This document shows positions 16,982-46,820 of a DNA stretch of 61,519 bases, one piece after another. The stretch covers positions 1-61,519 of the IMG/VR virus record IMGVR_UViG_3300042862_000334, one strand, 5' to 3'. A program made the position numbers and the translations under genes. The notes under the pieces were generated by a model, which made no database searches, was not told the origin of the DNA, and saw nothing but the letters and a program-made list of their open reading frames with translations. The DNA comes from a virus. Its lineage: Duplodnaviria > Caudoviricetes. Each line of letters begins with the position of its first letter. Position 1 is the first letter of the stretch.

Positions 16982-17626
16982 CTACGAAACTGCACAACCG
17001 AGAACATATTGTCCTACATTTGGGTCAACGCAATTACGAATTATTTGGTCTTTTCTGTGTTTCATTTTATATTCTCGTAAATCAAAATAACCTTTTTCAG
17101 AACTTCCTCTTTGGTTGTGAGTTAATCCGTCTTTAATTTCAGTTTGTGGTATTTCAAAGTTTGCCCAAAATAAGTGTCTACCAAGTTTTGCAGTTGGTTT
17201 TACAAATGGTTCGTAATAAGGCTTTACATTTTCAACTACAAACTTTATATCTGTGTTCTTTGTAAAGTTCTGTAAAAAGGTTATTTCAGCCCACAATCTC
17301 ATATCAGGCATTACAGCATCGTAACTTCCGCTTTTACTTGCCATCATTCTTACTTTGCTATGGCTTTGGCAAGGTGGAGAACTCCATATAAAATCAAACT
17401 CTCTCCAATTTTTAGCCAAATAATCGTGTGCATCAGTAACTATTACATTATCGTTTGGGTGTAATTGCTTGTAAACATTTGCAATTTCTTCGTTGTATTC
17501 TATTGCAGTTACTTCTACATTTTCCCAATGTTTGCGGTTTCCTCCAATTCCAGCGTATAGGTTTAAAACCCGTACTGGTGCTAACATCGGTTTGGCAAAA
17601 TTGCCGTTTTCGTTTTCTTTTGACAT
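16982..17626 (-). CDS. C5-cytosine DNA methyltransferase (short form), cassette cargo
   Basis: Motif I VLNLYAGIGG, motif IV SPPCQSHS, motif VI VENV; start codon lies inside the attC-like site. Confidence 0.8.
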   Translation of the reverse strand: MSKENENGNFAKPMLAPVRVLNLYAGIGGNRKHWENVEVTAIEYNEEIANVYKQLHPNDNVIVTDAHDYLAKNWREFDFIWSSPPCQSHSKVRMMASKSGSYDAVMPDMRLWAEITFLQNFTKNTDIKFVVENVKPYYEPFVKPTAKLGRHLFWANFEIPQTEIKDGLTHNQRGSSEKGYFDLREYKMKHRKDQIIRNCVDPNVGQYVLGCAVS

Positions 17627-17696
17627 TTTATCTTAATTTAAACATTTGTAATTCTAATGAAGTTTTGTGTTCGGCAACTTCGCCAAGCCGTAGGCG

Positions 17697-17939
17697 TTAG
17701 GCAACATTTAAAGAAGCCCACCAAATATTAAACTTCTCCATAGCAATCTTTTCTGCATTTTTTCCACCGACACAATCTTCATAGTGATAAGGTGATTTAG
17801 TTTCTCCATCAGCGTGTCTTAATCCGCTTCTAATGCAGAAAAAACCAGCACCATCTGTAATTTCAAACCAATCTATCATTGTCATTCCAATCCCGAATTT
17901 AAATTCAGGTCGAAGTTTTAATATCTGTTTTTTAGTCAT
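17697..17939 (-). CDS. Hypothetical cassette protein
   Basis: Fills cassette 2; its TAA stop is the TTA of the GTTA core. Confidence 0.65.
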   Translation of the reverse strand: MTKKQILKLRPEFKFGIGMTMIDWFEITDGAGFFCIRSGLRHADGETKSPYHYEDCVGGKNAEKIAMEKFNIWWASLNVA

Positions 17940-18080
17940 AATAAACGTTGCCTAACAAAGTGTATAAGCAATAGCCGTTAGGCGTTTCAAACTATTGCAG
18001 TTGTTAATATTTAATTTTCTACATCTAATCAAGTTCTGTGTTCGGCTACTGCTCATACACTCGACCGTTATGTGTAATTG

Positions 18081-18893
18081 CTACCATTCCGTTCCAAATA
18101 AAGATTGCGCTTGTAAATCTTTTTCTTTTCTTTTTTCTTCCAACGCTTTTTTAATTCGTTCTTCAATCAAATTACAGTATTCATTTGATATTTCACTTCC
18201 AATCCAATTACGGTTGTTTAAAATACTCATTTTTGCAACTGTTCCGCTTCCCATAAAACAATCATAAACCAAATCACCTTCATTGCTCCAACTTAAAATG
18301 TGGTCATTTGCAAGTGCTTCTGGAAATACAGCAGGGTGTTCGCCTTTTTGTGGGGCTATATACCAATAGTTGTTTCTTCTGCTAAATTCCGCACTTGGTT
18401 TTCTACTCTCTATTTTATGTTCGCCAGTTACTAATCTTCTTCCTACTCCGCTTTTATCTTTGCCAAAAGAAGCATTTGGTTTGTCATAAATTAGATTTGT
18501 AGTATTTATTTTTCCTTTTGAAAACACGAACATATACTCAAAGTTTTGTGTATAGCATTTATTACTCCCTACTGCACCTCCACCATCTTTTATCCAAATC
18601 ATTGTGTCGTGTAAGTTGAATCCAATTTCTTTGAAATATAGTGCTTGTTTAAATGATGTTCCGCTTTCGTTTCCTTGAACAGTTGCATCCGAAATAACCC
18701 AAACTAATACCCCACCATCTTTGGTAATTCTAAACAACTCCTTTGCAATATCTTCAAAAGGGAAAGAATATCCATTGTAAGTTCTTAGTCCATCATAAGG
18801 TGGGCTTGTTACCGTTAAATCCACAAAGCAATCAGGCATCTTTGCCATTGTTTCTAAATTGCTTTCATTGTAATTCTTGTTTATATCAATCAT
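18081..18893 (-). CDS. N4-C/N6-A DNA methyltransferase (beta class), cassette cargo
   Basis: TSPPY precedes HPAVFP and DCFMGSGT; likely start is MIDINK at 18893. Confidence 0.85.
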   Translation of the reverse strand: MIDINKNYNESNLETMAKMPDCFVDLTVTSPPYDGLRTYNGYSFPFEDIAKELFRITKDGGVLVWVISDATVQGNESGTSFKQALYFKEIGFNLHDTMIWIKDGGGAVGSNKCYTQNFEYMFVFSKGKINTTNLIYDKPNASFGKDKSGVGRRLVTGEHKIESRKPSAEFSRRNNYWYIAPQKGEHPAVFPEALANDHILSWSNEGDLVYDCFMGSGTVAKMSILNNRNWIGSEISNEYCNLIEERIKKALEEKRKEKDLQAQSLFGTEW

Positions 18894-19086
18894 ATTTTTA
18901 AATTTTTCAAATTTATTTTTGCCATCGCTCAAAAAAGAAAAGAAAAAGTATTCCGTTTCAAATTGAACTTTCTGCTATTAAACCGCAACTACACATAACA
19001 AGGTATTTGCAAAATTGCCCACCAACATTTGTGCTTAATTTGAAGTATCTGCAAGGGCAACTTCGCAAATACCCAACCGTTATCAC

Positions 19087-19386
19087 TCAGCTTGGCGAGT
19101 CGGTTAAAAGAGATAACATTGCATCATATCCAAAAACCTGCTTTGTTGCTTCTTTTGTATCGTTTTCATCTGATTTTAGATTTAATGAATAGGAACTTCC
19201 GTAACAGGAAACCTTTTTATTTTCAGCATCTACTATACAAAATCCCGCAGAAACAGGATTTAAGTTTCTCATACTTGAATGCTCTACGAAACAAGGAAAT
19301 ATTATAATTCCGTTGTATTCTTTAATCTTAACATATTTTTGTTCTGTATTCATATTTAGTGGAATAAAAAGCCGAAGTGATAACAA
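19087..19386 (-). CDS. Hypothetical cassette protein
   Basis: Fills cassette 4; PVSAGF...GSSYSLNLKS pattern; start uncertain. Confidence 0.6.
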   Translation of the reverse strand: MLSLRLFIPLNMNTEQKYVKIKEYNGIIIFPCFVEHSSMRNLNPVSAGFCIVDAENKKVSCYGSSYSLNLKSDENDTKEATKQVFGYDAMLSLLTDSPS

Positions 19387-19523
19387 ATGATATAAAAGAT
19401 TTTCGGCTTGGTTTATAAATTTAATTTTTGGGTTTGTACTTTTTAATTTTGGTCTTAAACTGAAAGGTTCGGGATTTATCCTGCCGAAAAACCTCTCATA
19501 TCATCGACCGTTATAAGAAATAG

Positions 19524-19863
19524 CTACTTTACGTTTTCAATCAAATCTATTTCAACTCGATGTTTAGTATGTGAGTGATAAGAATAATTAGTCAATACTT
19601 GCGTTTCTGTTTTATAACCTAAACGGCTATCTTTTACCTTTTCAATTAATTCTTTTTCAAATTCATTTTCGGCGTGCAAAACTATCTTTGCTTTACCTTG
19701 CCATATTACTACCTCTGTTTTCATAATTCTATTTTGTTTATTTAGTTACTAATGTTGTTGCAAACCACATAAAGAATAATCTTGTATAGTTCTTACCGTT
19801 TACTTTATAAGTTGGAAATTTCTTAAAGCCCATCCATTGTGTGTGAAATTCTATTTTCATCAT
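19524..19863 (-). CDS. Two small cassette ORFs (19524-19724, 66 aa; 19738-19863, 41 aa)
   Basis: Both lie inside cassette 5; the second (MMKIEFHTQW...) was translated by hand. Confidence 0.5.
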
Positions 19864-19961
19864 ATTTAGTTTAAATTATCCGCTACTTCTTATAACAGCA
19901 ACTACAACTCACCAGCCGAAACTACTCACTGCATAGGCTGGCGTGATGTAGTTGCAAAACG

Positions 19962-20120
19962 TTAGAGCCGTTTAAGGGTGTTTACATTTACCGCAAAGAA
20001 TATTGCATTTACAACGATGTTGAGTATTCCGCTTGCAATTTTACCATCTACCAAAAAGTAAACACCCATACAAAATAGGATTACCTGAACAATCATTAGT
20101 GCTATTATGAACTTTCTCAT
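19962..20120 (-). CDS. 52-aa two-TM membrane peptide in the partial 6th cassette
   Basis: MRKFIIALMIVQVILFCMGVYFLVDGKIASGILNIVVNAIFFAVNVNTLKRL*; its stop is the TTA of the GTTA core. Confidence 0.55.
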   Translation of the reverse strand: MRKFIIALMIVQVILFCMGVYFLVDGKIASGILNIVVNAIFFAVNVNTLKRL

Positions 20121-20143
20121 TTTTAAATAATTTTTGTGTTTAA

Positions 20144-21800: not shown

Positions 21801-22249
21801 AACTTTTTTAAATTACAATATTGTTGATATTGTTTTTCTATTATACTTTCATCTACTTTTCTTTTTCGACCCATATTACGAGTTAAAGCCTCTTTTAAAG
21901 TTACATCAAAGTAAACTACTTCTGTAGGTACTTTAAACTTTTCAAAGTTTTTTTGGTACTCTATGCGTAAATTAGTTGCATCGACTATAACATCTTTTCC
22001 GCGCTTTAACCAAAAACTTATAAGATTATCTTGAACAGCTGTTATTTGATTCTCTAAATAATTAAAATCATTTCTACTGTAGTATTCTGATATTGTATCT
22101 TCAAGATATCCATAATGAGCCTCTCTTAACTTATCTCTATTTACGACAATATACCTTTCTGGATTGTGTCTAACTGTTGTAGAAGCAAATGTACTTTTCC
22201 CACTTCCACTAATTCCACATAAAATTATTATTTTACTCATGTCTTCCAA
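21797..22249 (-). CDS. Polynucleotide kinase-like P-loop protein (AAA_33)
   Basis: GISGSGKS, NRDKLR, VDATN, RNMGR. Confidence 0.8.
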   Translation of the reverse strand: MEDMSKIIILCGISGSGKSTFASTTVRHNPERYIVVNRDKLREAHYGYLEDTISEYYSRNDFNYLENQITAVQDNLISFWLKRGKDVIVDATNLRIEYQKNFEKFKVPTEVVYFDVTLKEALTRNMGRKRKVDESIIEKQYQQYCNLKKL

Positions 22250-22847
22250 TAGTTAATTTATTTTTTAGTAGTTGTTGTATTAGCTCGTAAGAAAACAAGC
22301 TGTATTCTCCAAACATATTATAGTAAGCATCAATTCCAACATCCATACTTTTATATTTTCTTATTTCCTTAATTACAGGATTTTCATCTCCATGTAAATG
22401 TCCACTTAAATGAAATGCGCCGTCCTCTTGGTAATTCCAGCAAAATTGCGGGAAATGTGAACAGCAAATAATTTGACCTTCAATATTTAATTCTAAATAG
22501 TCTCCTAAATAAATAAGCTTATCACATTCATGCCAAGTAGAAAATAACTTTCCTCTGTTACAATGATTGCCAAAAAGCATAATAACATTTTTACAAACTA
22601 AACTATTTAAAAACTGTTCGTAGTTTTTATCTTGCATCATCGTATCCCCGCACAAAACAAGTAAATCATTCTCTCTTACGAGTTTATTAGTTTCAACTAT
22701 AATGTGGTCATTCATGTGTTCTACGCTGTCAAACTTTCTACCAAAGTCTATCACTGCCTTATGGTCTATGTGAAAATCTGACGAAAAATAAACCTTATCT
22801 ACATTTAAGGTTTGTTTTGGGTAGCTTGTTAATATTTTAACTTTCAT
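22233..22847 (-). CDS. Metallophosphoesterase
   Basis: SDFH, CGD, GNH, SHFP, GHLH. Confidence 0.8.
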   Translation of the reverse strand: MKVKILTSYPKQTLNVDKVYFSSDFHIDHKAVIDFGRKFDSVEHMNDHIIVETNKLVRENDLLVLCGDTMMQDKNYEQFLNSLVCKNVIMLFGNHCNRGKLFSTWHECDKLIYLGDYLELNIEGQIICCSHFPQFCWNYQEDGAFHLSGHLHGDENPVIKEIRKYKSMDVGIDAYYNMFGEYSLFSYELIQQLLKNKLTIGRHE

Positions 22848-23945: not shown

Positions 23946-23970
23946 AGGAGATGATTTCTTTTTACAATAT

Positions 23971-28154: not shown

Positions 28155-30427
28155 TTAATATAAATCCTCACTATAAAGTGTTCCCTCTCCGCCACTAACT
28201 CTTATAATTTGATTAGCTTTTTTAGCTATATCCCAACCTTCTTGTCTATCTACGAATCTGTTTAAATTTGTTAGAAATCCTTGAATATGTTCTCCACTTT
28301 CAGCATCTCTTAGTCCTGTTACGGCGCATTTAGAGTAGATACATTGACCGTGACGGTGTCCTGTAAAAACTACGCCACTATCACAATTTTTTGGTAAATA
28401 ACTACCTAATGGTACATCGCTGTTTTTAATGTGTGGAAATTCTTTATACCAAACTGCTGCACATAATATTCTTTCTTCCATGTTTATTCTACTTTAAACG
28501 ATTTATCAAAAGACTGTTCTTCTCTAACATACACTTCTAAACTATTTATATCTTGGTAACACACTGCTTCAAACCATTCTCCTTCGTGTTGATATTTGCA
28601 AGGGTGTAGCACTCGATACAGATTTTTATTTTTGTAGTGCGTATATAACGTTTCTTTCAATTTCATTCTGTTTTTATCTTTTTCGCGGCGATTTTCTTAT
28701 CCACATAACTATCTATTTCTTTTTCACACCCACTGCAAAATAAACCTTCTCCAACACCTTTGGTTAAGACAGGTTTTTGACAGCAGTATGTTACAATATC
28801 TTGGTGCAATTTATTTTCCATTTTTTATCGCCGAAATTAATCTGTTATTAAATTTTTCTTCTCTCTCTTTATACATCTTTAAAACATCTTCATGTCTATT
28901 ATCATCGAAAAATGTCTTACAAACAAGTTTTGATACTTTACTTCTAAATTTCTCTTCTATACTTGTTGGCGCGGATTCTAAAGGAGTAAAAAACAACTGC
29001 TCAATCTCATAATTATCAAAGATTAGTTTAGCTTTAAAAGAACGACTATATCTTTCAATTACTTCTATTTTAACTTCAATATAAACTGATATTCCTAATT
29101 TAACCCACAATAATTTACCATCTTCTGTTGGTTTAGGTAGTTGAACAAGTATTTTATCTTTTATAATATTATCTAAGATAAAGTCTCTGTATTTTTCTGT
29201 TATACTCATTCCCACCAATTTTTTATCCTTTCATTCATAATCTTAAATAACAAATCTTGAGCTCTTTGCTGATTTATATTTCCAATATTCATTGCAATAT
29301 ACTTCTTACTTTCTAAACTGAAAATACCTTCACCATTTAAAACTCTTTTGTAAATCAACGGATATTTCTTAAAATACTCGTCAAAGTTTTCCCAAATTTG
29401 TTCTGACTCCCAAGTTGAATATCCTTCCATATCACTACATTTTTCAAACCAATGTTTTTCTTTATGATAATCAAAATATTCATGTTCATAGAACTCATCT
29501 TGTATTTTCTCAATTAAGCTTACACAAATTCTCATATCTCTTGCATCTTTTTGTGCTTTTGTATAAAAATCTCTATCTCCAATGTATTTAGCTTGAGCTT
29601 TTAATTTGTGTTTTAAAACTTCAAAAATGTAATGACTGTCCCAATTTCTATCTTGCCAAATTACTTTTCGCCAATACCAAAAGTTTTTTACACCTTGTTT
29701 AAAGTCTTTTGGAATGAATCGCCAATTAAATTTCCATTTTAAAGATAATCTTCTGAATAGATTTGGTTTTGGTCTGTCTTCTATATAATCACAACCACAG
29801 TTTTGTCCACAACTATCTAAAAAGCAACCTTTACCTTCATTCCCTGTACAATTTATCTTTTTCATTGTATAAATATTTTTAAAGTTGACCCGCCATCTTG
29901 ATAACTAACTTCTACACCACCACGGTAAGTAAAAATTCTACCTATTGGGTGTTTATCTGAATTGTGGTTGATTATTTCTACCCTCGTTACAGATGGTTTT
30001 ATAACAGCCCATTGAATTCTTTCTTCGCCCAAATCAGTATAGATTTCAGTTTCTATTTCAAAGTTTACTTCTTTATTTTCTTTTACAGCAAATCCGCCGA
30101 AATAAGAAGAAGTTAAAGATAGAGGATAATCTACAAAAACAACATCGTCTCCTTCTAAAGAAGATACTGTTCTAGCCCAAAATGCATTTTCTTTTCTAAT
30201 TATTTTTCCTTTTGTCATTGTATAAATTCTTTTAAATCAACTGCGTTTAATATACTGTCTTTATCAATAATAGCACAATCATGTTCAACTTGTGCATAAG
30301 CTTTTTCCGCCACAATTTCAAGAAGTTCTTGGCATTTTAGTTCTGCAAATTCAGATAATGCTTCTTCAAACATCCAATCTCTACATCCTTCAGGATAATA
30401 TTTTTCTGTAAATTCTTCTGCTGTCAA
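28155..30427 (-). CDS. Cluster of hypothetical proteins (28155-28481, 28484-28666 DUF1653-like, 28811-29218, 29206-29865, 29862-30218, 30215-30427)
   Basis: ORF track; 28484-28666 has the YxHYK...Y...V.Y...YVR pattern. Confidence 0.55.
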
Positions 30428-32366: not shown

Positions 32367-33515
32367 TTAAAAAGGAGGTGTAGTATCTCCATCACCAAAA
32401 ACTGAACTTAACTGGTCAAAACTAATTGGTGGTACAATCTCAGAAACTGTTTTTTCAAACACTGGAGTAGTGTTGAATGTTGGCGTTTGGAATGGTGTGG
32501 CTGTTTGTTTGGGCTCAATAGACTGTTTCATTTTTTCTATCTGTTCTGATGTTAAATCCATCTTTTTTACGAAAAGGTCTCGCCATGGGGAATCTGATTC
32601 CCTTACTTTTGTTACAAAATAAAATAAATTTGAAATTGTATTAAATGAAATTCTTCCGTTTTTATCTTCTTCCCCGAAAAATTCATCTAAATAATCATAC
32701 CTTTCTTTTGAAACTTTTAAATATTGTGTCACAGATTGTTTGAAAGGGTTTGTGATTATTATTATATAAGATGCTAACTGCTCCATAAAACTGCTACCAA
32801 AAATCCAAGAATTGTTAGGCATCATATCATTAGATTTCTCTTTTATATTACCACTGTGAATCCTATTAATTTGCGAAAGTAACAAGAAATATACGTTGTT
32901 GAACTCTAACTTCAGTAAATTTATAAATTCGCTTATTTTTTCTAAAACAGCTTGTTTATCAGAGCCTACGAACAATAAAATGTGGTCCGCTGATAATATT
33001 ATGCTATCAGCATCTTTGTGCTTAATACAAAAATCTCTTGTCATCTTATAAAAATCCTCTGGAGTAACAGGTGACTGAACTACAAACCTTCTGTTATCTT
33101 GTAAACTCTCATAATACTTTTTTACTTTTTCAGATTCCTCTTCATTAAATTCTTCAAATAATATTTTTGATTTCTTTTTACCAAGTAAGTTATGTGTTGT
33201 ACGTAGAAGTTTATTTAACATCTTCATCTCCATAGAAAACTCAAGACTGACAAAATTTTCAGCATTTGGGTTTACTTCTTTACTCATAATTTTTTCTATC
33301 ATTCTGTAAAGTGTCTCAGATTTACCTGAGGATGGAGCTCCAGCTATTAAAACACAATCACCTGGTAATAAGGTTCCTAAATGACAATCTAGCATTTCTT
33401 CCCCTGTGCGGAGTAATAGTTTTGTACCTTTTTGCAATTTTGCCATTTCAGCAAACGCCTCTGTAGCAACTACACCTACTTGTTGAATTCTACTATCTAA
33501 TTGTATTTCACTCAT
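32367..33515 (-). CDS. DnaB-like (SF4) replicative helicase
   Basis: Walker A GAPSSGKS, FSMEM, ADH, LLSQINR; acidic/PF C-terminal tail. Confidence 0.85.
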   Translation of the reverse strand: MSEIQLDSRIQQVGVVATEAFAEMAKLQKGTKLLLRTGEEMLDCHLGTLLPGDCVLIAGAPSSGKSETLYRMIEKIMSKEVNPNAENFVSLEFSMEMKMLNKLLRTTHNLLGKKKSKILFEEFNEEESEKVKKYYESLQDNRRFVVQSPVTPEDFYKMTRDFCIKHKDADSIILSADHILLFVGSDKQAVLEKISEFINLLKLEFNNVYFLLLSQINRIHSGNIKEKSNDMMPNNSWIFGSSFMEQLASYIIIITNPFKQSVTQYLKVSKERYDYLDEFFGEEDKNGRISFNTISNLFYFVTKVRESDSPWRDLFVKKMDLTSEQIEKMKQSIEPKQTATPFQTPTFNTTPVFEKTVSEIVPPISFDQLSSVFGDGDTTPPF

Positions 33516-38966: not shown

Positions 38967-39936
38967 TTACTAGTTGTTTAATTTCTAATTTTTTCTGTTC
39001 TTTTACTTCTGGTTTGTCCGAGGAAAACATGGTATTGTTAACATAAAGACTTGTTAAGATATCTTCTACAATTTCTTTATCTTTTTTAGTTAATTTAGAT
39101 TTACTTAACTTCTGTTCTATTTTTTCTTTTGTCGCCGAATCAATAGAAACAGCTTTATAGATGCGTTGTAATAGCGGTACCTCTTCTACGAAAGTTTCAT
39201 TTGAATTATTTTCTGTTTTATCTATAACTTTTCTAATAAAACCTTTTCTGCCTTGCAAGGCGCAAAACAATTCAGCAACAGCTTTAACATCTTTCTTGCA
39301 GTATTCTGAAATTCTACTAATGCCGTCTTTCTCTTCATAATAAACTCTTGAAACATCTGCTCCAGAAATATCGTCTTTAGGTGTATCAATACCTGCCAAC
39401 ATACACATTGAATCTAAAGATAAGTTGTAGTAATAAGTACCTTTTGTAATATCCATAGTGTCCATAAAGTTGTCCGCCAATACCCATGGTTTTTGTTGAC
39501 TATCACTATGTTTGTCTGAAAGAATAGATAAATCAACACCACTTTCAAATGCTTTTAAGCGAATTGTTGGCATATCAAATTGAATAATATTATGACCGCA
39601 AGGAATAAAACCTGTTGAGTTTAACATTGTGTAGAACTGCTCTATAATGTCTTTCTGTTCGCCTAAAAGAGATTTTAAAAATAGATTATTATCTTTAATA
39701 AAACCTACAGTTATACAAACTATTTTATTAAATGCTGGGTCTAAAGCACCGTTTAGTTTGTAATGCTCTAAGACTTCATTTGCTGGTGGTAGTTTTGATG
39801 TTTCTTTATCTCTTAACTTCCAAGCATATAAATCATATTCTTTTGAATTAATGTCTAATACATCGTTTCTACGTGTAGTTTCTATGTCTAGAAATAATAG
39901 TTTTTCTAAATCTTGTTTTCTTACTCTGTTATTCAT
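38956..39936 (-). CDS. DEDDy 3'-5' exonuclease (PolB-exo2-like)
   Basis: FLDIET, GHNIIQFD, MDTM, YCKKDV. Confidence 0.8.
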   Translation of the reverse strand: MNNRVRKQDLEKLLFLDIETTRRNDVLDINSKEYDLYAWKLRDKETSKLPPANEVLEHYKLNGALDPAFNKIVCITVGFIKDNNLFLKSLLGEQKDIIEQFYTMLNSTGFIPCGHNIIQFDMPTIRLKAFESGVDLSILSDKHSDSQQKPWVLADNFMDTMDITKGTYYYNLSLDSMCMLAGIDTPKDDISGADVSRVYYEEKDGISRISEYCKKDVKAVAELFCALQGRKGFIRKVIDKTENNSNETFVEEVPLLQRIYKAVSIDSATKEKIEQKLSKSKLTKKDKEIVEDILTSLYVNNTMFSSDKPEVKEQKKLEIKQLVNGK

Positions 39937-40816
39937 TTTTTATTTGTTTTATTAAGTTTTTAATTCCTCTGCCGTCTTTTATTGATTTACCTGTATGCCA
40001 ACCAGAGTATGGAAATATTGTTACTTTTTCGCCGCGAAAAAAAAATGAAAAAGAAGAGGAACTGATATCAAAAATATCAAATCCTAAATCAGAAACAGCA
40101 TTAGAAGCATATTCAAATCTTTTAGGTTCTAATTCTATTTGTTTTTCTTTATCTAATCTCATTTTTTAAATACAATTTCTTTTTCAATTTTACCATTAAC
40201 CAATCTACTAACTGTTGCTTCTTTTATATCATTTTCTTGATTGGTTAGAGAAACTATTTCAGATACAAATTTTTCATAATCTTCTTCTGTTTCTAATGTT
40301 CCGCAACTAGCCCCAACGCTTGATTCAACACGATAAGCACCAAAAGGATTTTCAATATGTTTTTCTTCTCTAATTACATTATCAACAGCTAACTCCTTAC
40401 TTTCATCCAACTTTATCATCTTACCTTGCTCATCTCTTTTTATGGTAAAAGACCTATGATATCCACAATCTGGACAATTTACATATTCCTCTCCTGTTTT
40501 GTAGTAGTAGTCCTCAAAGCACTCTTCGCTTTTACAGTTTGGGCACTCTATATTTCCAATTACACTTCCCATAGTTTTAATATACTTTTAATTCTTCTTT
40601 ACCTGTGTTTAACCAAGCTTCTATATTATTTGTACTACGAATTGATTCATTGTTATCCATCCAATAGAATAACTGGTATCTTAAATCACTATGTGCTAAT
40701 CTTTTCTTTTCGCCGAAAAAAGATTTAAAAGAAACCTCAAATATTACAGAAGTTCCATTTTTCTCTATTAATTTTAAATTAGTAATTTTCATATTTTTAA
40801 TTTTTATCTTCCGCAA
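39929..40816 (-). CDS. Three hypothetical proteins (39929-40162; 40159-40572 with a zinc ribbon; 40577-40792/40816)
   Basis: ORF track; CPNC...CPDC in the middle ORF. Confidence 0.55.
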
Positions 40817-40832
40817 ATATACGAAATTATTT

Positions 40833-41630
40833 TTAAATAGGCAAATTTATTTTACCTAAAGTTTTATTTGAAACGTGACAATAAATCTGAGTTGTTCTAA
40901 TGTTCTGATGTCCAGCTAATTGTCTTATTATTTGCAAATCTGTTCCTGATTCTAAAAGTGTTGTAAAACTACTATGACGTAGCAAGTGAAAATGATAGTC
41001 CTTACCTATATATTTTTTAACTATCTCGTTACAACTTCTGTGAGAATATTGCAGACCAAACTGCCCGTTAAACAAGAACTCTTTCGGTGTATACTCCTTA
41101 AAATATTCGCGTAAAAGATTTAAAACAACAGAAGATAAAGGTACAAACCTGTCCTTTCTTCCTTTACCGTTTTTAATTAAAATCAACATCCTTTTAGAAT
41201 CAATATCTTCTAATTTTAAATTACAAACTTCACTAACTCGCATCCCTGTAGAGAAAGCTAAAGTGATTATTGCTTTGTGCTTCAAATTCTCAATTTTTGA
41301 AATCTTATCTAACAAAAAATCTTTATCAATTACTCTTGGTAGTTTCTTTTCAGTTTTTGGTCTTTCTATTTTGTTTAGATGAACATCTTTTTTATTTAAA
41401 ATATATCGCGCAAAAAGCTTCAAACAACCAATAAACTGATTTTGTTGAGCAACAGATGAAAATTCCCTACTTTCAAGAAAACAAACAATGTCTTTAGTTG
41501 AAACTTTGTATGGGTCTTTACAATTTATTTCTTTTAGATATTGAAAAAGTACTTGTTTATAAACCTTAATTGTGTTTTGAGAATAGTTTTTATATCTCAA
41601 TTTATTTTCAAAAATTTCGAGAACTTTCAT
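40833..41630 (-). CDS. Tyrosine recombinase (XerD/IntI-related, no IntI-specific insertion)
   Basis: N-terminal YSQNTIKVY SAM-like domain; catalytic set GMRVSE, GKGRKDR, HLLRH, AGH, TTQIY. Start MKVLEIF is supported by the truncated paralogue. Confidence 0.92.
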   Translation of the reverse strand: MKVLEIFENKLRYKNYSQNTIKVYKQVLFQYLKEINCKDPYKVSTKDIVCFLESREFSSVAQQNQFIGCLKLFARYILNKKDVHLNKIERPKTEKKLPRVIDKDFLLDKISKIENLKHKAIITLAFSTGMRVSEVCNLKLEDIDSKRMLILIKNGKGRKDRFVPLSSVVLNLLREYFKEYTPKEFLFNGQFGLQYSHRSCNEIVKKYIGKDYHFHLLRHSSFTTLLESGTDLQIIRQLAGHQNIRTTQIYCHVSNKTLGKINLPI

Positions 41631-41636
41631 AGTTTG

Positions 41637-41686
41637 AGTATTGATTTTATTGATGTTTTTTATTAGTTGAGTATATATAATAGTTA
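41637..41686 (+). other. attI-like site of cassette array 2
   Basis: GTTGAGT (41666) and GTTATAAG (41683) are 17 bp apart with no hairpin; the core is identical to array 1. Confidence 0.75.
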
Positions 41687-41696
41687 TAAGCAAGTG

Positions 41697-42446
41697 CTAC
41701 ATTTCGTTTTCAAATAGAGATTGTGCTTGTAAATCTTTTTCTTTTCTTTTTTCTTCCCACGCTTTTTTAATACGTTCTTCTGAAATCTTGAAATAGTTTT
41801 CATCAAGTTCAACACCAATGTATTGTCTGTTTGATAATAAACTTGCAATACAAGTCGCACCCACACCCATAAAAGGTTCAAAAACTATTTCGTTTTCTTT
41901 TGATGAATTTTCAATTAGAATTTTCATCAACTCAACAGGCTTTTCTGTGTCGTGTAAATTTTTACCATCATCGTCTTTTGTTTTTTTATTTGGTATAGAA
42001 AGTATATCAGCAGTTCCACAATTATTTATTTTTACACCTGCACCTTTTCTAAAAAATAAGATATACTCAAATTGCGACATATAGTATTGACCCATTATCT
42101 TGTTTCCTTTATCCCATATAATTGACTTTATGAAGTGAAACCCTATATCAGTCAAAACATTAAGATATTCTTGCAGGTTTTTATGATTAGTCATTATATA
42201 GCAATGACCTGTTTCTTTTAGAACTTGATATAATTTTTCTCCCCATATTTTTACGTGAGTATCATTTTTTTCAAATACTTTACCTTTTTTATTAATATCT
42301 TTTTGCAACATTCCACCGCTATTTCCAGCACAACCTCTTGCAGTTGTTGGATATGGTGGGTCTGTTACAATTAAATCAACCTTATACTCCTTAGCAATCA
42401 TTCTATCTATTATTGCTATTGCATTATCATTAAATATTTTGTTCAT
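41697..42446 (-). CDS. N6-A/N4-C DNA methyltransferase (beta class), first cassette
   Basis: TDPPY, HDTEKP, EPFMGVG. Confidence 0.85.
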   Translation of the reverse strand: MNKIFNDNAIAIIDRMIAKEYKVDLIVTDPPYPTTARGCAGNSGGMLQKDINKKGKVFEKNDTHVKIWGEKLYQVLKETGHCYIMTNHKNLQEYLNVLTDIGFHFIKSIIWDKGNKIMGQYYMSQFEYILFFRKGAGVKINNCGTADILSIPNKKTKDDDGKNLHDTEKPVELMKILIENSSKENEIVFEPFMGVGATCIASLLSNRQYIGVELDENYFKISEERIKKAWEEKRKEKDLQAQSLFENEM

Positions 42447-42753
42447 TTTTCTTTATTTTTAAATTTTTATTTTCCCCGCACAAAAAAGAAAAGAAAAAGG
42501 TTTCGTCTTTCAAATCAAGTTCTGTGCTATAAAACCGCACCAGCTTATAACAGCGTGTATATGCAAGTGGTGGTTCTGTGGTTTATTCAACATTTGTTTT
42601 CTTATCAAACTTTCTACTGTATTGAAAGGTAAGTGCTTCTAATCACCACCTGACATATACACGCAAAACGTTATAAGTAACTTTAACCGAAGCTGTCCAA
42701 AAGATAATTCTGCTAAAAAGCTGTATAAATTTCTTTCTGCTTCGGAAAAGCTA

Positions 42754-43019
42754 CTATTTTTCTATAAAGTATGTATTTTTAAAAACTATATATGCTTTTC
42801 TATTCATAATAATTGTCTTTTCTCCGTACTTTTTACCCAACCATTCCACTATAAAAAATGGTAGTATTTTATAAATATTTCGTATCATAATTAAAAAGAT
42901 AAATCTTTGTTACTATTTTCTAAATCCTCTTTCAAACTTTCTAAAACTAACTCAATAATTTCAGATGGAATTTCTTCCCCATTTAAAAATTTTTCTTTAT
43001 AATCTTTTAAATATCCCAT
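42754..43019 (-). CDS. Two ~44-aa ORFs in cassette 2
   Basis: MGYLKDYKEKFLNGEEIPSEII... and MIRNIYKILPFFIVEWLGKKYGEK..., translated by hand; ends approximate. Confidence 0.45.
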
Positions 43020-43222
43020 AATAAAAGCTACTTATAACAGTGGTTTTGCTCAATGGCTATTTCAGGCAAAATTTATACACTGTTTTGTGTTTGTAAAATT
43101 TGTTTTTAATTCAATAATTTAGGATTGCTTTTCAGCCACTAAGCAAAGCCACGAAACGTTATAAGTAACCCTACGGGTCGCTATCGCTTACTTATAACAC
43201 GGGCTAAAACAAAATAAATTTG

Positions 43223-43435
43223 CTATCGTCCGTGCAAATATTCATCGTGGCGGTTTTCATAATCCACTTTTTTACTTTCGGTTTGTTTTGCTTCTTCAGT
43301 TTCTAATTCATAGCAGTATGAATGAAAGTTTGCGTTTCTAAATGTCATTGGAGATTCTGCATTAAAAGCAAAACCAGCATCGTAGTCGTGGATTTCTATT
43401 TTCTCTTTACAAACTTTACATTTCATAATCCGCAA
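43223..43435 (-). CDS. ~70-aa Cys/His protein nested in an attC-like loop
   Basis: CKVC...FHSYC; lies between hairpin arms 43200-43223 and 43432-43455. Confidence 0.6.
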   Translation of the reverse strand: MRIMKCKVCKEKIEIHDYDAGFAFNAESPMTFRNANFHSYCYELETEEAKQTESKKVDYENRHDEYLHGR

Positions 43436-43473
43436 ATTTTACTTCGTTTAGCCCGAAACCGTTAGCGGTAATA

Positions 43474-43710
43474 CTATGACAGTGCTTCAAATCTAATTCT
43501 GTGGTTATAAAAATCGCCATCTCCTCCAGCGTGTACAGCATATTTTTGACCATCGCCATTTTCAACTTCTGCATAAGTTCCATCTTCTAATGTAATTTGT
43601 GCTTCATCATCAAATCTTGCATAGAAATGTTTATTTTCATTTAAAAAAAATGCCATAGTATCGCTATTTGTTGGCATTGGCTCTATTGTTGAGAATCTAT
43701 AATCTTCCAT
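43474..43710 (-). CDS. Hypothetical cassette protein
   Basis: Fills cassette 4. Confidence 0.65.
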   Translation of the reverse strand: MEDYRFSTIEPMPTNSDTMAFFLNENKHFYARFDDEAQITLEDGTYAEVENGDGQKYAVHAGGDGDFYNHRIRFEALS

Positions 43711-43884
43711 TTTGTATGTTTTAAATTATTAATAATAAGTACTACCGCTAACAAGGGTTTTATGAAATTGGGGCTTCGGTGCTTAATTTTGGCTTTTGGT
43801 ATTCTATTGAACTTTGGTGCTTTATTCAACATTCGGTTTTCAAAAACCCCAACTTCATAAAGCCCCGAGACGTTATAAGCCATT

Positions 43885-44256
43885 TTAGGACGACACACCG
43901 TTAATAGAAAGTAAATTTTCCCAACCACAAGAAACATCATAACCTAAATCATCGGCTTGGTTTACAGTCAATGCTTTTAATTCAATTGTTTCAGTTGGTT
44001 CTTTTGGCATTTCTTTATAATCCCACCATTCCGAACCATCATACTCGCCTCTTTCAAGCCACCAATTTTCGCCAACCACTAATAAATCTTGTGCAACTTT
44101 AGATGAACCAAATCCACTTTCATAATCAACATCAGCAGTTTTTTTGAAATCTTCCCAAGTTGTTTTATGAGTTGAAGTTCCTACCCATTTTACATCAGTT
44201 TCTTTTTTGTTATTACTCTCTAATAATTCAAGAGTTTCTTTTAATAAATTGCTCAT
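43885..44256 (-). CDS. Conserved phage hypothetical cassette protein
   Basis: DYESGFG...WWLERGEYDGSEWW pattern. Confidence 0.65.
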   Translation of the reverse strand: MSNLLKETLELLESNNKKETDVKWVGTSTHKTTWEDFKKTADVDYESGFGSSKVAQDLLVVGENWWLERGEYDGSEWWDYKEMPKEPTETIELKALTVNQADDLGYDVSCGWENLLSINGVSS

Positions 44257-44391
44257 TGTTTTTTAATTATATTGTTACGCCAAACACGAATAAAAACGGC
44301 TTATAACAGTGGTTTGGCAAAATACCGCCACAAGCCTTTGTACTATAATTCAACATTTGTGCAAGGCGGTACTTCGCCAAGCCACCAAACG

Positions 44392-45051
44392 TTACAGGCA
44401 AGTGTTAGCACCCTGCACATCAACGACAGACTGCGGGATATTACGTTCCTGTTTACGTTCTTTCATTTGCCAATCGTAATCCAATAAATAGTTATGGCTG
44501 TTACCAATCAAATCATATTTGTCTTTACTAATTGACACTTTTAAAAAGGCTCTCATTCCACCTTTGGTAATTGGTGCAACTTTATGAATGTTAAATTGAT
44601 TAAGTCTTATAAGTTGATTTTCTTTGTAAGCAACATCATTAAATGGCATCGCTTGTTTTTCCATTTCTTCCATTGAAAGCAAATCGTCTAATGGCAAATC
44701 AAAATCTGTTTTATTAAAAATGGTTGGGTATTTGTCGCACCACACATAGTTAATATCATTAGTCAAAAAACCATCGCTATGCCATCCTGTTCTATTAAAA
44801 GAACAATTAGGCATTTGATAAAGAAATTTTGCAGTCAAATACACGTATGAATTTACATAATTATCCAAGCCAAATTCGCCAATAAAATCACAACATATTG
44901 CACCAATCAATTTATCAAAGCATTTTAATCGTGGCTCATAAATCGGTTGTGTTTCATTTGGCATTTTAATAGGTAAATATTGGTAGAACATCATTTCTTT
45001 ACATTCTACTTCAAATATTCCTAATTCCGTTGGTAGTTCACCGTATTTCAT
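44392..45051 (-). CDS. Putative 2OG-Fe(II) dioxygenase-like cassette protein
   Basis: GWHSDG (HxD), distal NIH, then RAFLKV. Confidence 0.5.
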   Translation of the reverse strand: MKYGELPTELGIFEVECKEMMFYQYLPIKMPNETQPIYEPRLKCFDKLIGAICCDFIGEFGLDNYVNSYVYLTAKFLYQMPNCSFNRTGWHSDGFLTNDINYVWCDKYPTIFNKTDFDLPLDDLLSMEEMEKQAMPFNDVAYKENQLIRLNQFNIHKVAPITKGGMRAFLKVSISKDKYDLIGNSHNYLLDYDWQMKERKQERNIPQSVVDVQGANTCL

Positions 45052-45353
45052 ATTGCATTGATTTTAACAGTTTCAAAAGTGTTTTCAAAAACGTAAAGGC
45101 ACAATTCCTGCATTATAAATAGTTTGCAAGTTCCCATATAATTAAGCCTTTCAAGTGGCGTTTTTATTGGTTGCCCTGTTTTATAAAATTCTAAACACCT
45201 TTTTTCTTTTGGGTGTTCTTCATCTGTTTCAACTATTGCCCACAGAAAAAACAATCCATCTACATCTTCAATGCGGATTATTTGAGCATCTTTTGGAAGT
45301 TCTATTGTGTACTTCTCTTTTGTTGGTATTGAGTATTTATATATTGCTTTCAT
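45048..45353 (-). CDS. Hypothetical protein, same cassette as the dioxygenase-like gene
   Basis: IYKY...LWAIV...TG...YMGT pattern; overlaps the next gene by 4 nt. Confidence 0.6.
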   Translation of the reverse strand: MKAIYKYSIPTKEKYTIELPKDAQIIRIEDVDGLFFLWAIVETDEEHPKEKRCLEFYKTGQPIKTPLERLNYMGTCKLFIMQELCLYVFENTFETVKINAI

Positions 45354-45523
45354 TACGAAAAATTTTAAAGATTAACCCACACCTGCCTGTAACATCGGTT
45401 TGCCAAAAGCTGGGCAGACGTAGTAAATTCAGCTTTTGTTCCTTTAATCGGCTTTAGTGCAAGGGGTGATCAGTTGTGCTTCTAATCCCAGCCTTCGGCA
45501 AGCCGTAGCCGTTAGCATCAATG

Positions 45524-45739
45524 CTACAATTTGTTTTCAAAAGATATTTTAGGCTCTTTTGGAATTGGAATTTTCATAACGTGGGTTGGCACTTTTCTGC
45601 CACAAAAACCGTAATTAAAAGAAAAAGTATTTTTTAAAAACTTTGCTTTTTTAACTTTGTTGTCCATAAAAATATAACAATCAAAATCAGTTTCTTTTTC
45701 AAAATCGAATTTATCTATTTCAATCCATCTGCAATTCAT
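45524..45739 (-). CDS. DUF551-like cassette protein
   Basis: WIEI...PTHVMKIPIP. Confidence 0.5.
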   Translation of the reverse strand: MNCRWIEIDKFDFEKETDFDCYIFMDNKVKKAKFLKNTFSFNYGFCGRKVPTHVMKIPIPKEPKISFENKL

Positions 45740-45907
45740 AGTATTTCAGTTTTAAGAACCGCACTAATGCTAACACATGTTTGTGTCAATAGCTACGGCA
45801 GTTATTAATTTAATGTTTTGCGTTTTCTTTTATGTTCAGTCTTAAACCGAAACGATAGTGTGTGTCAGAACGCTACTGAACACAAGCACTCGGAAGTTAT
45901 GTGAGAT

Positions 45908-46081
45908 TTACTCGTCAGAAGTATCAAAATTAAAATCATCTTCTTCTTCTACTATAACTTCTCCTTTATATGAAAAAGAAACAGAAGGAGAACCACAACA
46001 ACCACAACCACCTACTGACATTTGTATATCATTAGCCTTTAAAATTTCTTTTACTTTTTTAATTCTTTCTTCTATTCCCAT
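45908..46081 (-). CDS. 57-aa cassette protein with GGCGCCGSP motif
   Basis: MGIEERIKKVKEILKANDIQMSVGGCGCCGSPSVSFSYKGEVIVEEEDDFNFDTSDE*, translated by hand. Confidence 0.6.
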   Translation of the reverse strand: MGIEERIKKVKEILKANDIQMSVGGCGCCGSPSVSFSYKGEVIVEEEDDFNFDTSDE

Positions 46082-46229
46082 TTTGTTTTAATTTAAAAAC
46101 CTCACATAACAGCATATTACCGCTATGGCTTGGCTTTGGTTAATCCGAAATGTGTCGGCTCACTTTTTGTTTGTTGTTTATTTGTTGTCGTTTGTGTTCA
46201 AATACGCCACATAGTTAATATGCATAACG

Positions 46230-46481
46230 TTATAAGCAAGGTGGCTTTGGAAGTTCCATCCACCAAGTTTCATCTACATTACAATACTTTACCATTGAAG
46301 TTTCGTGTATAGAAATTGCCAAACTTTCTTGGCTATCATTCATTATTCTATAAATCAAAACTTTGTTACCGTTTTGTTCTACTGATGGCAATTTCTCCGA
46401 AGCCGCCACCCAGCTTATAACAGCACCTATATTCAATTGCGGTTTTTGTGGTTCATTCAACTTTTGTTCTTCTATTTTCAT
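46230..46481 (-). CDS. DUF551-like cassette protein starting inside the attC loop
   Basis: WVAASEKLP...WWMELPKPP; likely start is MKIEEQ at 46481. Confidence 0.6.
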   Translation of the reverse strand: MKIEEQKLNEPQKPQLNIGAVISWVAASEKLPSVEQNGNKVLIYRIMNDSQESLAISIHETSMVKYCNVDETWWMELPKPPCL

Positions 46482-46550
46482 TTGTTCTAAATTTAAAGTT
46501 TTCGTTTTTAAAGTCCGCAACTAAATATAGCTGCATCACGTTGGCAGTAA

Positions 46551-46820
46551 TTATTTGAAGAACTCGCTAAATTCAACAAGCCTTAATCCTTCTGCTTTTT
46601 GATATTCGGAACTTCCAGTACTACCAGTTGAAAAAAAACTTTCATAGTCTGCGTAAACTACTACTGCTGTTTCCGTTGTTGCCATTTGTGGTACAAAATC
46701 TAAATATAAATTTTCAGCACCTAAAAAATCTTTTACTTTATCAAACTCTTTTTTATCTCTAATAATAATTGATAATCCTTTGTAATCCATCACGTTTAGT
46801 ATTATAACTACTGCTAACAA
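46551..46820 (-). CDS. Hypothetical protein of the last cassette
   Basis: Fills cassette 10; start uncertain (46790 or 46820). Confidence 0.55.
   Translation of the reverse strand: MLAVVIILNVMDYKGLSIIIRDKKEFDKVKDFLGAENLYLDFVPQMATTETAVVVYADYESFFSTGSTGSSEYQKAEGLRLVEFSEFFK

Follow-up and report, generated by a model that had tools for sequence, protein, structure and literature searches.

The window analysed here is the whole 61,519-nt stretch of the IMG/VR virus record IMGVR_UViG_3300042862_000334 (Duplodnaviria; Caudoviricetes). The source of the phage was lake water. Two cassette arrays are found in the window, array 1 at 16969-19961 and array 2 at 41683-46818, and the roughly 21 kb between them (about 20000-41630) hold phage replication genes and the recombinase gene; a sequence-only reading of this DNA had given the single interval 17572-46818, which is not one array. 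The recombinase gene lies on the minus strand (40836-41630) and encodes a Xer-type tyrosine recombinase of 265 aa without the IntI insertion. Its start is adjoined by the attI, a conserved block on the plus strand (41631-41683) that ends in G|TT at 41683. Array 1 is headed by an attI-like junction (16945-16969, plus strand), whose sequence agrees as far as GTTA with that of the attI at 41683, and the first cassette begins after G 16969. A truncated second copy of the 5' end of the recombinase gene, covering residues 1-45 with 84% identity, is located on the minus strand at 16782-16916. Fifteen cassettes with both ends were tabulated, five in array 1 (from G 16969) and ten in array 2 (from G 41683). 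Each cassette unit begins with the TT just past the G of G|TT, carries a minus-strand gene and closes with its AAC core, its inner hairpin and then the G that follows. All cassette ORFs of the window are carried by the minus strand, and three of the cassettes encode DNA methylases.

The fourteen hairpin sites are all assigned to the minus strand. Array 1 contains a1s1 (17579-17702; AAC 17583, GTT 17696) and a1s2 (17950-18073; AAC 17954, GTT 18067), both with spacers of 2/5, a1s3 (18993-19085; AAC 18997, GTT 19079), which moves with the N6/N4 methylase cassette 18068-19079, a1s4 (19378-19516; AAC 19382, GTT 19510), and the final site a1s5 (19890-19967; AAC 19894, GTT 19961), for whose GTT end at 19961 no partner was found anywhere in the window. 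Array 2 begins with a2s1 (42545-42676; AAC 42549, GTT 42670) and a2s2 (43032-43164; AAC 43036, GTT 43158), followed by an empty cassette body of 40 nt together with a2s3 (43159-43467; AAC 43196, GTT 43461). The loop of a2s3 contains a 70-aa ORF (43223-43435), and the empty cassette and a2s3 were found as a single unit in other metagenomes. The remaining sites are a2s4 (43746-43878; AAC 43750, GTT 43872), a2s5 (44301-44397; AAC 44305, GTT 44391), a2s6 (45387-45517; AAC 45391, GTT 45511), a2s7 (45768-45902; AAC 45772, GTT 45896), which has the weakest stem of the set, a2s8 (46104-46235; AAC 46108, GTT 46229) and a2s9 (46415-46546; AAC 46419, GTT 46540). Array 2 closes with the AAC end of its last cassette (46804-46818, plus strand), which has C at position 11 and after which no inner hairpin was seen.

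Positions in the cassette ends were numbered from the G of GTT as position 1, and the GTT end of each cassette was aligned to its AAC end. The earlier claims that A stands opposite C at position 11 and that pairing continues beyond it were both confirmed: the mismatch was present in 14 of the 15 two-ended cassettes, and pairing resumed past it for 3-6 bp. Ungapped alignment gave A opposite C in 13/15 cassettes, and the chance of at least 13/15 is 4e-15 at the base composition used (A 0.293, C 0.188). In cassette a1c4 (19079-19384) the A meets the C after one extra A on the AAC side, and the sole exception is the empty 40-nt cassette 43159-43198. Positions 1-10 are paired in the window cassettes, with a single mismatch in four of them. 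The spacers between the cores and the inner stem were determined by a register search in the 14 window sites, each spacer being allowed 0-8 nt. The best registers were (1,5) in six sites, (2,5) in five, and (1,4), (2,6) and (0,4) in one each, so that 0-2 nt after AAC stand against 4-6 nt before GTT, in agreement with the lopsided spacing described before (about 1-2 versus about 5 nt). An A directly follows AAC in all 14 sites, and a C directly precedes GTT in 13 of them.

The inner stems were also reported to be rich in A.C mismatches, and over 18 positions in the 14 window sites 26 of the 50 mismatches were indeed A.C or C.A on the plus strand, 7 were G.T or T.G, and 17 were of other kinds. 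The proposed folding bias toward the bottom strand was likewise found with DNA parameters, as the minus strand was more stable in 13/13 sites in array form. Reconstruction and folding of the circular forms gave the same result (13/13), with a mean difference of 4.3 kcal/mol, an energy difference that restates the mismatch asymmetry and is no independent measure of it; the site with a 265-nt loop was omitted from both folding sets.

Relatives of the recombinase are encoded on 99 viral stretches. The homologue set was built from 56 related viral contigs and comprises 188 distinct cassettes (24 of 80 loci yielded none), selected by at least 6/7 pairs at positions 4-10 and with a stem score that half-credits transition mismatches; because the related contigs share ancestry, these 188 cassettes are not 188 independent events. 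Disappearance of the pattern in a larger homologue set had been named as evidence against it, and the pattern persisted. Position 11 on the GTT side was A in 180/188 cassettes and A.C in 139/188, and only 6% had a Watson-Crick pair; some of the 49 cassettes that are not A.C may be register shifts. Positions 12-15, which had no part in cassette selection, were paired in 80, 77, 84 and 65% of the 188 cassettes with varied pair types, as compared to a background of 32-41% at positions 16-22. The variable positions 4-10 and 12-15 thus covary across ends that lie hundreds of bases apart. Among the 285 homologue hairpins, A follows AAC in 256, C precedes GTT in 254, and the two spacers differ by 3 or 4 nt in 217, unlike the near-symmetric unpaired central spacer of integrons. 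A second fixed A.C was found in the inner stem, in 88/95 and 63/66 hairpins of the two main registers. In more than 90% of the sites the inner-stem mismatch falls on one or two shared positions, the neighbouring positions being 94-100% Watson-Crick, and all fixed mismatches are transitions. In the 161 of 285 hairpins examined for extrahelical bases, the 18 stem positions stay in one ungapped register, with no shift of the kind that would mark such bases, and the fixed mismatches are the only departures from pairing. The bottom strand was more stable in 247/266 homologue sites. Contigs with recombinases of just 50-70% identity have their mismatches at the same fixed places.

In 136 of the 188 cassettes the longest ORF is directed toward attI and in 11 away from it, and no ORF of half the cassette length was found in 41. 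The grammar also occurs on chromosomes, in arrays of Maribacter, Salegentibacter and Croceivirga. The flavobacterial chromosomal arrays L162, L153 and L125 share both this grammar and the attI-to-array polarity, with their genes on the top strand. Since the flavobacterial genes lie on the opposite strand and the attI polarity is unchanged, the polarity of the sites follows recombination, not transcription.

Exchange and loss of the cassettes, and their placement beside a conserved attI, take place exactly at G|TT. In most of the 43 loci inspected by eye, the attI block lies 50-60 nt upstream of the recombinase start and ends in TAAC beside a variable cassette end, and a regular expression for attI matched somewhere within the locus in 69/80 loci. 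A 315-nt cassette is 100% identical in loci L004 and L047, with the identity running from CGTTA to CGTTAT between unrelated flanks, and the methylase cassette 18066-19086 is 90% identical to a cassette of L075 with the same borders. Of the 31 matches kept after filtering for the analysis of cassette borders, 10 have their left end at G|TT, one at the AAC of the left-hand hairpin and two elsewhere, and 18 extend to the query start; of the right ends, six fall at the next G, none at AAC, nine elsewhere and 16 at the query end. The cassette content also varies among lake samples at exact site borders. In other lake metagenome contigs the attI at 41682 is joined straight to 43158 (runs X3 and X9), 43459 is joined to 46228 (X3), and exactly the cassette 44392-45511 is omitted (X9; shorter side 255 nt, pieces otherwise identical). 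As in integrons, the recombinase gene has an attI beside it, cassettes are attached to this attI at G|TT, and they are bounded by AAC/GTT imperfect palindromes and mobile as G|TT-cut units.

The recombinase matches Pfam Phage_integrase (1.8e-35) and a SAM-like N-terminal domain, and its alignment to XerA covers the conserved catalytic blocks. The best profile match is the XerA model (179.6 bits versus a cut-off of 220), followed by XerC (160.7 versus 335) and XerD (151.7 versus 330), and the family scores were not reached. The integron-integrase model TIGR02249 gave 140.1 bits against a cut-off of 265, with the match in two stretches. The top structure match is 4a8e (E 2.9e-33). The IntI insertion is missing as claimed, the query having 30 residues (178-207) where VchIntIA (2a3v) has 78 (182-259). 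This insertion is called essential for integron function in the available text of PMC8138268. The hairpins, whose rules differ from those of bacterial integron sites, match a simpler recombinase, so gene capture in the manner of integrons seems possible even where the supposedly essential part of the enzyme is absent.

Based on these results, the sites are probably the attC counterparts of an integron-like cassette system of phages, which is run by its own Xer-type tyrosine recombinase and in which fixed G.T wobbles, together with a one-sided bulge, would mark the folded bottom-strand sites instead of extrahelical bases. Of the different hairpin recognition code proposed earlier, the grammar unlike that of a classical array and the missing insertion both stood, and that the recombinase reads a wobble-and-bulge code on folded single-stranded DNA is what we infer from the sequences. 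The substrate would be the folded bottom strand, i.e., the minus strand of the window, on which the fixed A.C mismatches of the top strand would become G.T wobbles and a near-continuous helix could form. The outer arm is predicted to have 10 bp closed by a wobble on each side (by AAC/GTT and at position 11) and then about 4 bp, the cleaved AAC would be followed by a one-sided bulge of 3-4 nt, and the inner arm would have TAT/ATA as its conserved core and, 13-14 bp in, a fixed wobble. Each arm may hold one recombinase monomer. The wobble T of each arm would be on the strand running 5' to 3' into the centre, which would make the arms pseudo-symmetric. The wobbles and the bulge may replace the extrahelical bases and the IntI insertion in marking the folded site and favouring one strand. 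By analogy with integrons, a single strand would be exchanged and the junction resolved by replication.

It is unlikely that the sites are a taxon-specific variety of ordinary integron attC sites, shaped by lineage drift with the reading by the enzyme unchanged. The AAC/GTT cores, the G|TT crossover, the attI on the recombinase side and the imperfect palindromes are all integron-like, the classical cassette ends of our Vibrio-type control array likewise pair past 7 bp, and attC sequence is known to vary widely according to the available part of PMC8946536. However, the enzyme lacks what the accessible text of PMC8138268 calls essential, and IntI1 failed on the single tested site of such a kind in the available part of PMC9892861. 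The mismatch positions that are constant among contigs with divergent recombinases, the 161 hairpins without a shift of the extrahelical type over their 18 stem positions, and the absence of all three features (position-11 mismatch with resumed pairing, lopsided spacer and strand bias) from the control also argue against drift. It is rather improbable that Xer-like recombination acts here on double-stranded or cruciform sites, with the fixed A and C as sequence contacts in duplex half-sites. Xer enzymes usually act on duplex dif sites, and both profiles and solved structures place the enzyme nearest to XerA, XerC and XerD. Recognition of a duplex, however, does not need the covariation of distant ends at positions 4-10 and 12-15, and the half-sites would differ at the marked positions (C versus T), whereas the arms of a folded bottom strand would share the T.G wobble.

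The strand asymmetry might also reflect a function in RNA, the sites being terminators, processing sites or stabilisers in the transcript in which G.U is tolerated, and the better-folding strand is indeed the sense strand of the phage cassette genes. This explanation is very doubtful, because flavobacterial arrays of the same grammar have their genes on the other strand and the asymmetry keeps the attI/G|TT polarity, and because the wobbles are at fixed positions and not scattered. Three terminator-like sites were found in 41600-46900 versus 2.6 expected by chance; one of them lies within hairpin a2s8 and spans just a part of it, and no intrinsic terminator (a short G+C-rich stem, a small loop and a T run) makes up a whole hairpin site in this region. 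Mutational bias, in which cytosine deamination on the more exposed single strand makes G.T pairs without selection, would fit with every fixed mismatch being a transition, but such a bias would spread the mismatches, while over 90% of the sites share one or two positions, and it is hardly credible as an explanation.

Returning to the wobble-marked cassette system, a wider reading is plausible but tentative, a little short of an even chance: cassettes may be captured as folded single-stranded DNA without the IntI insertion by a widespread Xer-type family of phages and Flavobacteriia, which would read a different structural code, with a single G.T wobble toward the distal end of each binding arm and a one-sided bulge after the cut. 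Such a family could represent the ancestral form of integron recombination or else a second solution to it, and phages, with the cassette polarity reversed, could use it to keep counter-defence genes, DNA methylases among them, in an exchangeable store. The methylase cassettes and the differing lake samples point to a rapid exchange of genes with a possible role against host restriction. If the enzyme does read such a code, wobble pairs alone can set the strand choice of a hairpin, and the long-held requirement for the IntI insertion becomes directly testable. Current integron detection relies on the IntI insertion and the classical attC model, as described in the available part of PMC9024848. 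Arrays of the wobble-marked kind would escape detection or appear only as stray attC clusters. The compact recombinase and the short structured sites could serve as a gene-moving tool.

As compared to published phage sites, the present ones are similar to the integrase-less attC clusters of Qi et al. 2023 (PMC9892861) in being phage-borne and lying between DNA methylase genes. The available text of that paper treats such sites as classical attC, found by IntegronFinder and HattCI and tested with IntI1, which recombined 5/6 phage sites into attI1; that text describes neither a phage-encoded recombinase of the Xer type nor an attI, and no grammar set apart from the classical one, and no published description of wobble-marked hairpin cassette sites was found in the literature. 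The site on which IntI1 failed in that portion of the study, P12002L_attC1 (about 30000-30058 of NC_028924), has lopsided spacers as judged by eye on this single site, and Polaribacter phage P12002L carries more sites of the same grammar. The classical Vibrio-type control array had spacers of 6/6 in 16/16 sites, its end pairing faded after 8-11 bp without resumption, and the same analysis gave no bottom-strand stability bias in it; the contrast drawn earlier with canonical attC thus held for the symmetric spacer, but not for ends pairing over only 7 bp. The phage system and classical integrons are alike in the recombinase gene beside attI, the AAC/GTT imperfect palindromes, the G|TT crossover, the hairpin at the cassette end distant from attI and one strand that folds better. 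They differ in that the phage system has no IntI insertion, spacers of 0-2 and 4-6 nt, fixed G.T wobbles with no sign of extrahelical bases, and an outer arm of 10 + 4 bp around a fixed mismatch. The phage cassette genes point toward attI, the reverse of classical cassettes, and the analogy with integron expression therefore fails. Archaeal XerA and bacterial XerC/XerD are the closest enzymes by profile and structure, yet all scores are below the family cut-offs, and unlike XerA or XerC/XerD with dif, the phage gene sits at a cassette array and not at a chromosomal site of dimer resolution. The CTX phage integrates at dif via XerCD as a one-strand hairpin with an unpaired centre, of which a single strand is exchanged. 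That case differs in having one integration site, host enzymes and a whole phage genome, with no cassette array, attI or dedicated enzyme, but it is akin to the system proposed here in that an Xer-type recombinase lacking the IntI insertion works on folded single-stranded phage DNA.

The window spans the whole of a 61,519-base IMG/VR virus record, equivalent to 43% of a genome by CheckV estimate; its G+C content is about 30% and the minus strand carries nearly all genes beyond 8 kb. Pfam detected a family A DNA polymerase, a DnaB-like helicase, an RNA ligase, a PD-(D/E)XK nuclease and a pyrimidine dimer glycosylase, and the polymerase was about 50% identical to those of the Cellulophaga phages phi4:1 and phi17:2 and of some Acinetobacter phages. 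No Pfam match was obtained for the open reading frame (ORF) at 1-5931, which continues past the window start and encodes at least 1976 aa. Cassette sites were present in the interval 17572..46818 proposed by the sequence-only reading, but they form two arrays (16969-19961 and 41683-46818) rather than one. A tyrosine recombinase of 265 aa is encoded on the minus strand at 40836-41630, and the conserved block to the right of its start codon, referred to as attI, ends with G|TT at 41683, from where array 2 extends to 46818. At 16782-16916 lies a second, truncated recombinase 5' end, which covers residues 1-45 at 84% identity and is followed by a copy of the attI block that ends with G|TT at 16969 and heads array 1, so the phage has two docking sites and one intact enzyme. 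The stretch between the arrays is about 21 kb long and carries replication genes. A reading of it as one giant cassette was rejected, because no sequence in the window complements the GTT end at 19961. The last feature of array 2 is the AAC end of its final cassette, and neither an inner hairpin nor a closing GTT was seen beyond it (46804-46860). Just past array 2, at 46887-47323, many joints of contigs from other metagenomes skip 74-435 nt and lie near short direct repeats (47031-47114), which is a second variable spot of a different kind. A weak AAC...GTT hairpin with spacers 2/5 at 50620-50745, far from both arrays, looks degenerate and may be a decayed site or chance.

The cassette ends were compared without gaps, 22 bases from the G of GTT against 22 bases ending in AAC, for the 15 two-ended cassettes. 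Positions 1-10, counted from the G of GTT, were paired, with a single mismatch there in 4/15. The A opposite C previously noticed at position 11 was found in 13 of the 15 ungapped and in a fourteenth with one extra A on the AAC side, and the exception was a 40-nt empty cassette; the chance of at least 13/15 was 4e-15 as calculated from base composition. Past position 11, pairing resumed for 3-6 pairs in the 13 ungapped cassettes. The lopsided spacers of the sequence-only reading were also recovered when both lengths were left free (0-8 nt): 11 of 14 sites had 1-2 nt after AAC and 5 nt before GTT, and the remaining three had registers (nt after AAC, nt before GTT) of (1,4), (2,6) and (0,4). The base after AAC was A in 14/14 sites and the base before GTT was C in 13/14. 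Many inner-stem mismatches were A.C on the plus strand as described earlier (A.C or C.A 26/50, G.T or T.G 7/50), and the suspected folding bias was borne out with DNA energy parameters, the minus strand being more stable at 13/13 sites in the array form. In the circular form, in which a cassette's own two ends are joined, the minus strand was again more stable at 13/13 sites with a mean difference of 4.3 kcal/mol. The circular form was more stable than the array form at all 13 sites, which fits the long outer stem belonging to the excised cassette. The strict textbook cores RYYYAAC and GTTRRRY matched none of the real sites in the window, Rfam at gathering thresholds gave zero matches in the window, and a generic repeat finder caught just a few of the hairpins.

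The same grammar was examined in a scan of viral contigs, which yielded 111 pattern matches, 99 of them encoding a recombinase relative. The best 80 of these 99 (50-70% identity) were kept, turned to the window orientation and scanned for hairpins between AAC and GTT, with spacer lengths left free and a stem of 18 bp without gaps. A 12-bp ungapped stem was too unspecific (64 hits vs 17-33 in shuffles) and was replaced by the 18-bp stem with end-pairing validation, in which cassettes were accepted with at least 6/7 pairs at end positions 4-10; random end pairs passed in 1109/195,587 cases. The 415 pairs were reduced to 258 unique pairs and 218 nearest neighbours, of which 209 lay outside the window in 56/80 loci, and removal of 21 with identical ends left 188 homologue cassettes. 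The position-11 pattern, which the sequence-only reading had staked on a larger homologue set, persisted there: the pair was A.C in 139/188 cassettes (A.G 23, A.A 11, A.T 7, others 8), Watson-Crick pairs made up only 6%, and the GTT side was A in 180/188. Positions 12-15, which were outside the selection, were paired in 80, 77, 84 and 65% of the cassettes with varied pair types, and positions 16-22 in 32-41%. Registers (2,5) and (1,5) accounted for 161/285 validated hairpins, and the two spacers differed by 3 or 4 nt in 217/285; the first base after AAC was A in 256 hairpins, the base before GTT was C in 254 and the seventh base after AAC was T in 256. Within those 161 hairpins an inner-stem A.C was near-invariant at stem position 13 (88/95) or 14 (63/66), which is the 15th base after AAC in both. 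In register (2,5) (n=95) stem positions 5-7 formed a TAT core (93/95, 91/95 and 88/95), A.C was partly conserved at position 8 (36/95), the other stem positions were 91-100% Watson-Crick to position 18, and no register shift was found over this length. Of the core, only the T was near-invariant in register (1,5) (n=66), where it takes stem position 6 (65/66). The bottom strand, i.e., the minus strand in window orientation, was more stable in 247/266 homologue hairpins, equal in 3 and less stable in 16, with 19 hairpins spanning >200 nt left out.

Three lines of evidence bear on where these sites are cut. By eye, in most of 43 loci whose upstream regions were compared, the junction of the conserved attI block and the variable cassette end is at TAAC, 50-60 nt upstream of the recombinase start, and an attI-block regular expression matched in 69/80 loci, counting a match anywhere in the locus. 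The homologous loci L004 and L047 share a 315-nt cassette that is 100% identical from CGTTA to CGTTAT between unrelated flanks, and L075 holds a counterpart, 90% identical and with identical borders, of the methylase cassette at 18066-19086 of the window. Among 31 kept matches, left ends fell at G|TT in 10 and at the other core in 1, right ends fell at the next G in 6 cases and never at AAC, and the remaining ends extend into shared context or stop within a unit. The sequencing runs bearing array 2 are lake-water metagenomes, and contigs from other lake metagenomes were compared over 40800-47400, using those parts of array 2 that had contig cover. Joints were found from 41682 to 43158 (runs X3 and X9), from 44389 to 45510 (X9) and from 43459 to 46228 (X3); the second removes exactly cassette 44392-45511, with a shorter side of 255 nt and both pieces free of differences. 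All three joints sit at G|TT within a few letters common to both sides, and being known from contigs they indicate that such forms exist and do not give their frequency. At the level of sequence, attI, the shared cassettes and the contig joints agree on real recombination sites with the cut at G|TT, so that a cassette reads TT...gene...AAC-hairpin-G. The unit at 43159-43461, a cassette whose gene position is empty (40 nt) and whose hairpin loop holds an ORF of 70 aa, was seen whole in other lake metagenomes, attached directly to attI.

The cassettes encode N6/N4 DNA methylases in two cases and a C5 methylase fragment in one, and the others encode small unknown phage proteins. The C5 methylase ORF (16982-17626) begins in the loop of the first hairpin of array 1 (17583-17696) and reads through the inner and outer arms; its Pfam match starts from residue 19 and spans only the first third of the family model. 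All cassette genes of the window lie on the minus strand and therefore point toward attI and the recombinase. The longest ORF likewise pointed toward attI in 136/188 homologue cassettes and away in 11, while 41 had no ORF covering half of the unit. With genes in this direction the hairpin precedes the gene, which is the reverse of the order in classical cassettes. Among bacteria (one genome per species), recombinase relatives of at least 50% identity were found in only 4 contigs, all from metagenome bins; relatives of about 40% identity are common in Flavobacteriia and other phyla, and 17/80 bacterial loci yielded at least one cassette by the hairpin scan. Chromosomal arrays with the same grammar, i.e., 2 nt after AAC, 5 before GTT, the TAT core, the inner-stem A.C and the position-11 A.C, were present in Maribacter (L162, 8790-16420), Salegentibacter (L153 and L148) and Croceivirga (L125). 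The recombinase lies upstream of these arrays and is co-directional with them, the first cassette of the Maribacter array beginning just past the recombinase stop codon, and an 18-bp perfect palindrome was observed between the two. In the seven Maribacter sites the bottom strand folded better in 5, equally in 1 and less stably in 1. The genes of the bacterial arrays are on the top strand, which is the classical integron orientation. The strand asymmetry could be read as the trace of an RNA function, in which case it should go with transcription; but the bacterial arrays combine the opposite gene strand with the same grammar, so, judged from sequence, the mismatch polarity follows attI and G|TT rather than the direction of transcription, which argues against an RNA role. 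Terminator-like patterns in array 2 were at chance level (3 vs 2.6 expected).

The sites most likely work by folding of the bottom strand, on which every fixed A.C mismatch is a G.T wobble. The outer arm of the folded site would then consist of 10 bp, a wobble closing each side and an extension of about 4 bp, a bulge of 3-4 nt would lie directly after the cut AAC, and the inner arm would carry a fixed wobble 13-14 bp in. The wobble T of both arms would be on the strand running 5' to 3' into the centre, and this same placement would make the arms pseudo-symmetric and suited to two recombinase monomers arranged head to head. The top strand would retain mismatches at those positions and fold more poorly, which may determine the strand choice. 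Single-strand exchange, with replication resolving the junction, is borrowed by analogy from integrons. The recombinase was nearest to the archaeal XerA model of NCBIfam (179.6 bits vs a cut-off of 220), followed by XerC and XerD, and the integron integrase model reached 140.1 bits in two stretches vs a cut-off of 265. The best solved structure was the Pyrococcus XerA-type protein 4a8e (E 2.9e-33). In the comparison with the integron integrase of Vibrio (2a3v), query residues 12-177 and 208-258 aligned to 14-181 and 260-310, and this split leaves the recombinase about 48 residues shorter at the place of the IntI insertion, the catalytic-domain segment that the enzyme had been said to lack. In the 2a3v structure the IntI insertion holds extrahelical bases, and stems without bulged bases fit a recombinase without this insertion. 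One paper describes the insertion as essential for integron function and as not fully conserved in an 'integron-like' subgroup (PMC8138268).

In the full-text literature within reach, which excludes most subscription journals, no description was found of this site grammar, or of cassette systems in phages or flavobacteria that include a Xer-type recombinase. The sections consulted of Qi et al. 2023 (PMC9892861) report a screen of 10,705 phage genomes with IntegronFinder and HattCI that found phages with attC clusters, among them Polaribacter phage P12002L, whose cluster is accompanied by methylase genes. Of six phage sites tested, five were recombined by IntI1, and the exception was P12002L_attC1, predicted by HattCI alone (PMC9892861, same sections). 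We mapped the P12002L_attC1 primer sequence to about 30000-30058 of NC_028924, between two methylase genes; by eye, this one site has on the gene-sense strand a long spacer after AAC and a short one before GTT. Its failure with IntI1 is consistent with a site code that IntI1 does not accept, as far as one site viewed by eye can tell. Several further hairpins of the same grammar occur in P12002L (L163) at 32492-32922 and 39516-39707, where they sit among small genes and methylases, and P12002L has no annotated integrase. For Bacteroidetes, the IntegronFinder 2.0 paper names nothing, in the portion available, beyond earlier In0 elements and a single complete integron, that of Salinibacter ruber.

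As a classical control we used the integron fragment of Vibrio phage Va_90-11-286_p16, named a complete integron with Vibrionales-type sites in the consulted sections of Qi et al. 2023 (PMC9892861). Its 16 sites were missed by strict patterns and energy cut-offs and were located by a pattern read off the intergenic sequence. The spacers were 6 and 6 nt in 16/16 sites, the cassette ends (n=15) were paired in 15/15 at positions 1-8, 12/15 at position 9, 8/15 at positions 10-11 and at most 3/15 at positions 12-15, and the top strand was more stable in 12/16 sites. Thus none of the three features of the window is seen in the classical Vibrio array: pairing does not resume after a mismatch at position 11, the two spacers are equally long, and folding does not favour the bottom strand. 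The earlier claim of a difference from canonical attC therefore stands for the spacers, the mismatch and the bias, but not for the length of the paired ends, since classical ends also pair beyond the textbook 7 bp. Textbook attC is characterized, in the passages seen of PMC8946536, by an unpaired central spacer, extrahelical bases, a variable terminal structure and bottom-strand selectivity. As in integrons, the hairpin of a phage cassette sits at its attI-distal end.
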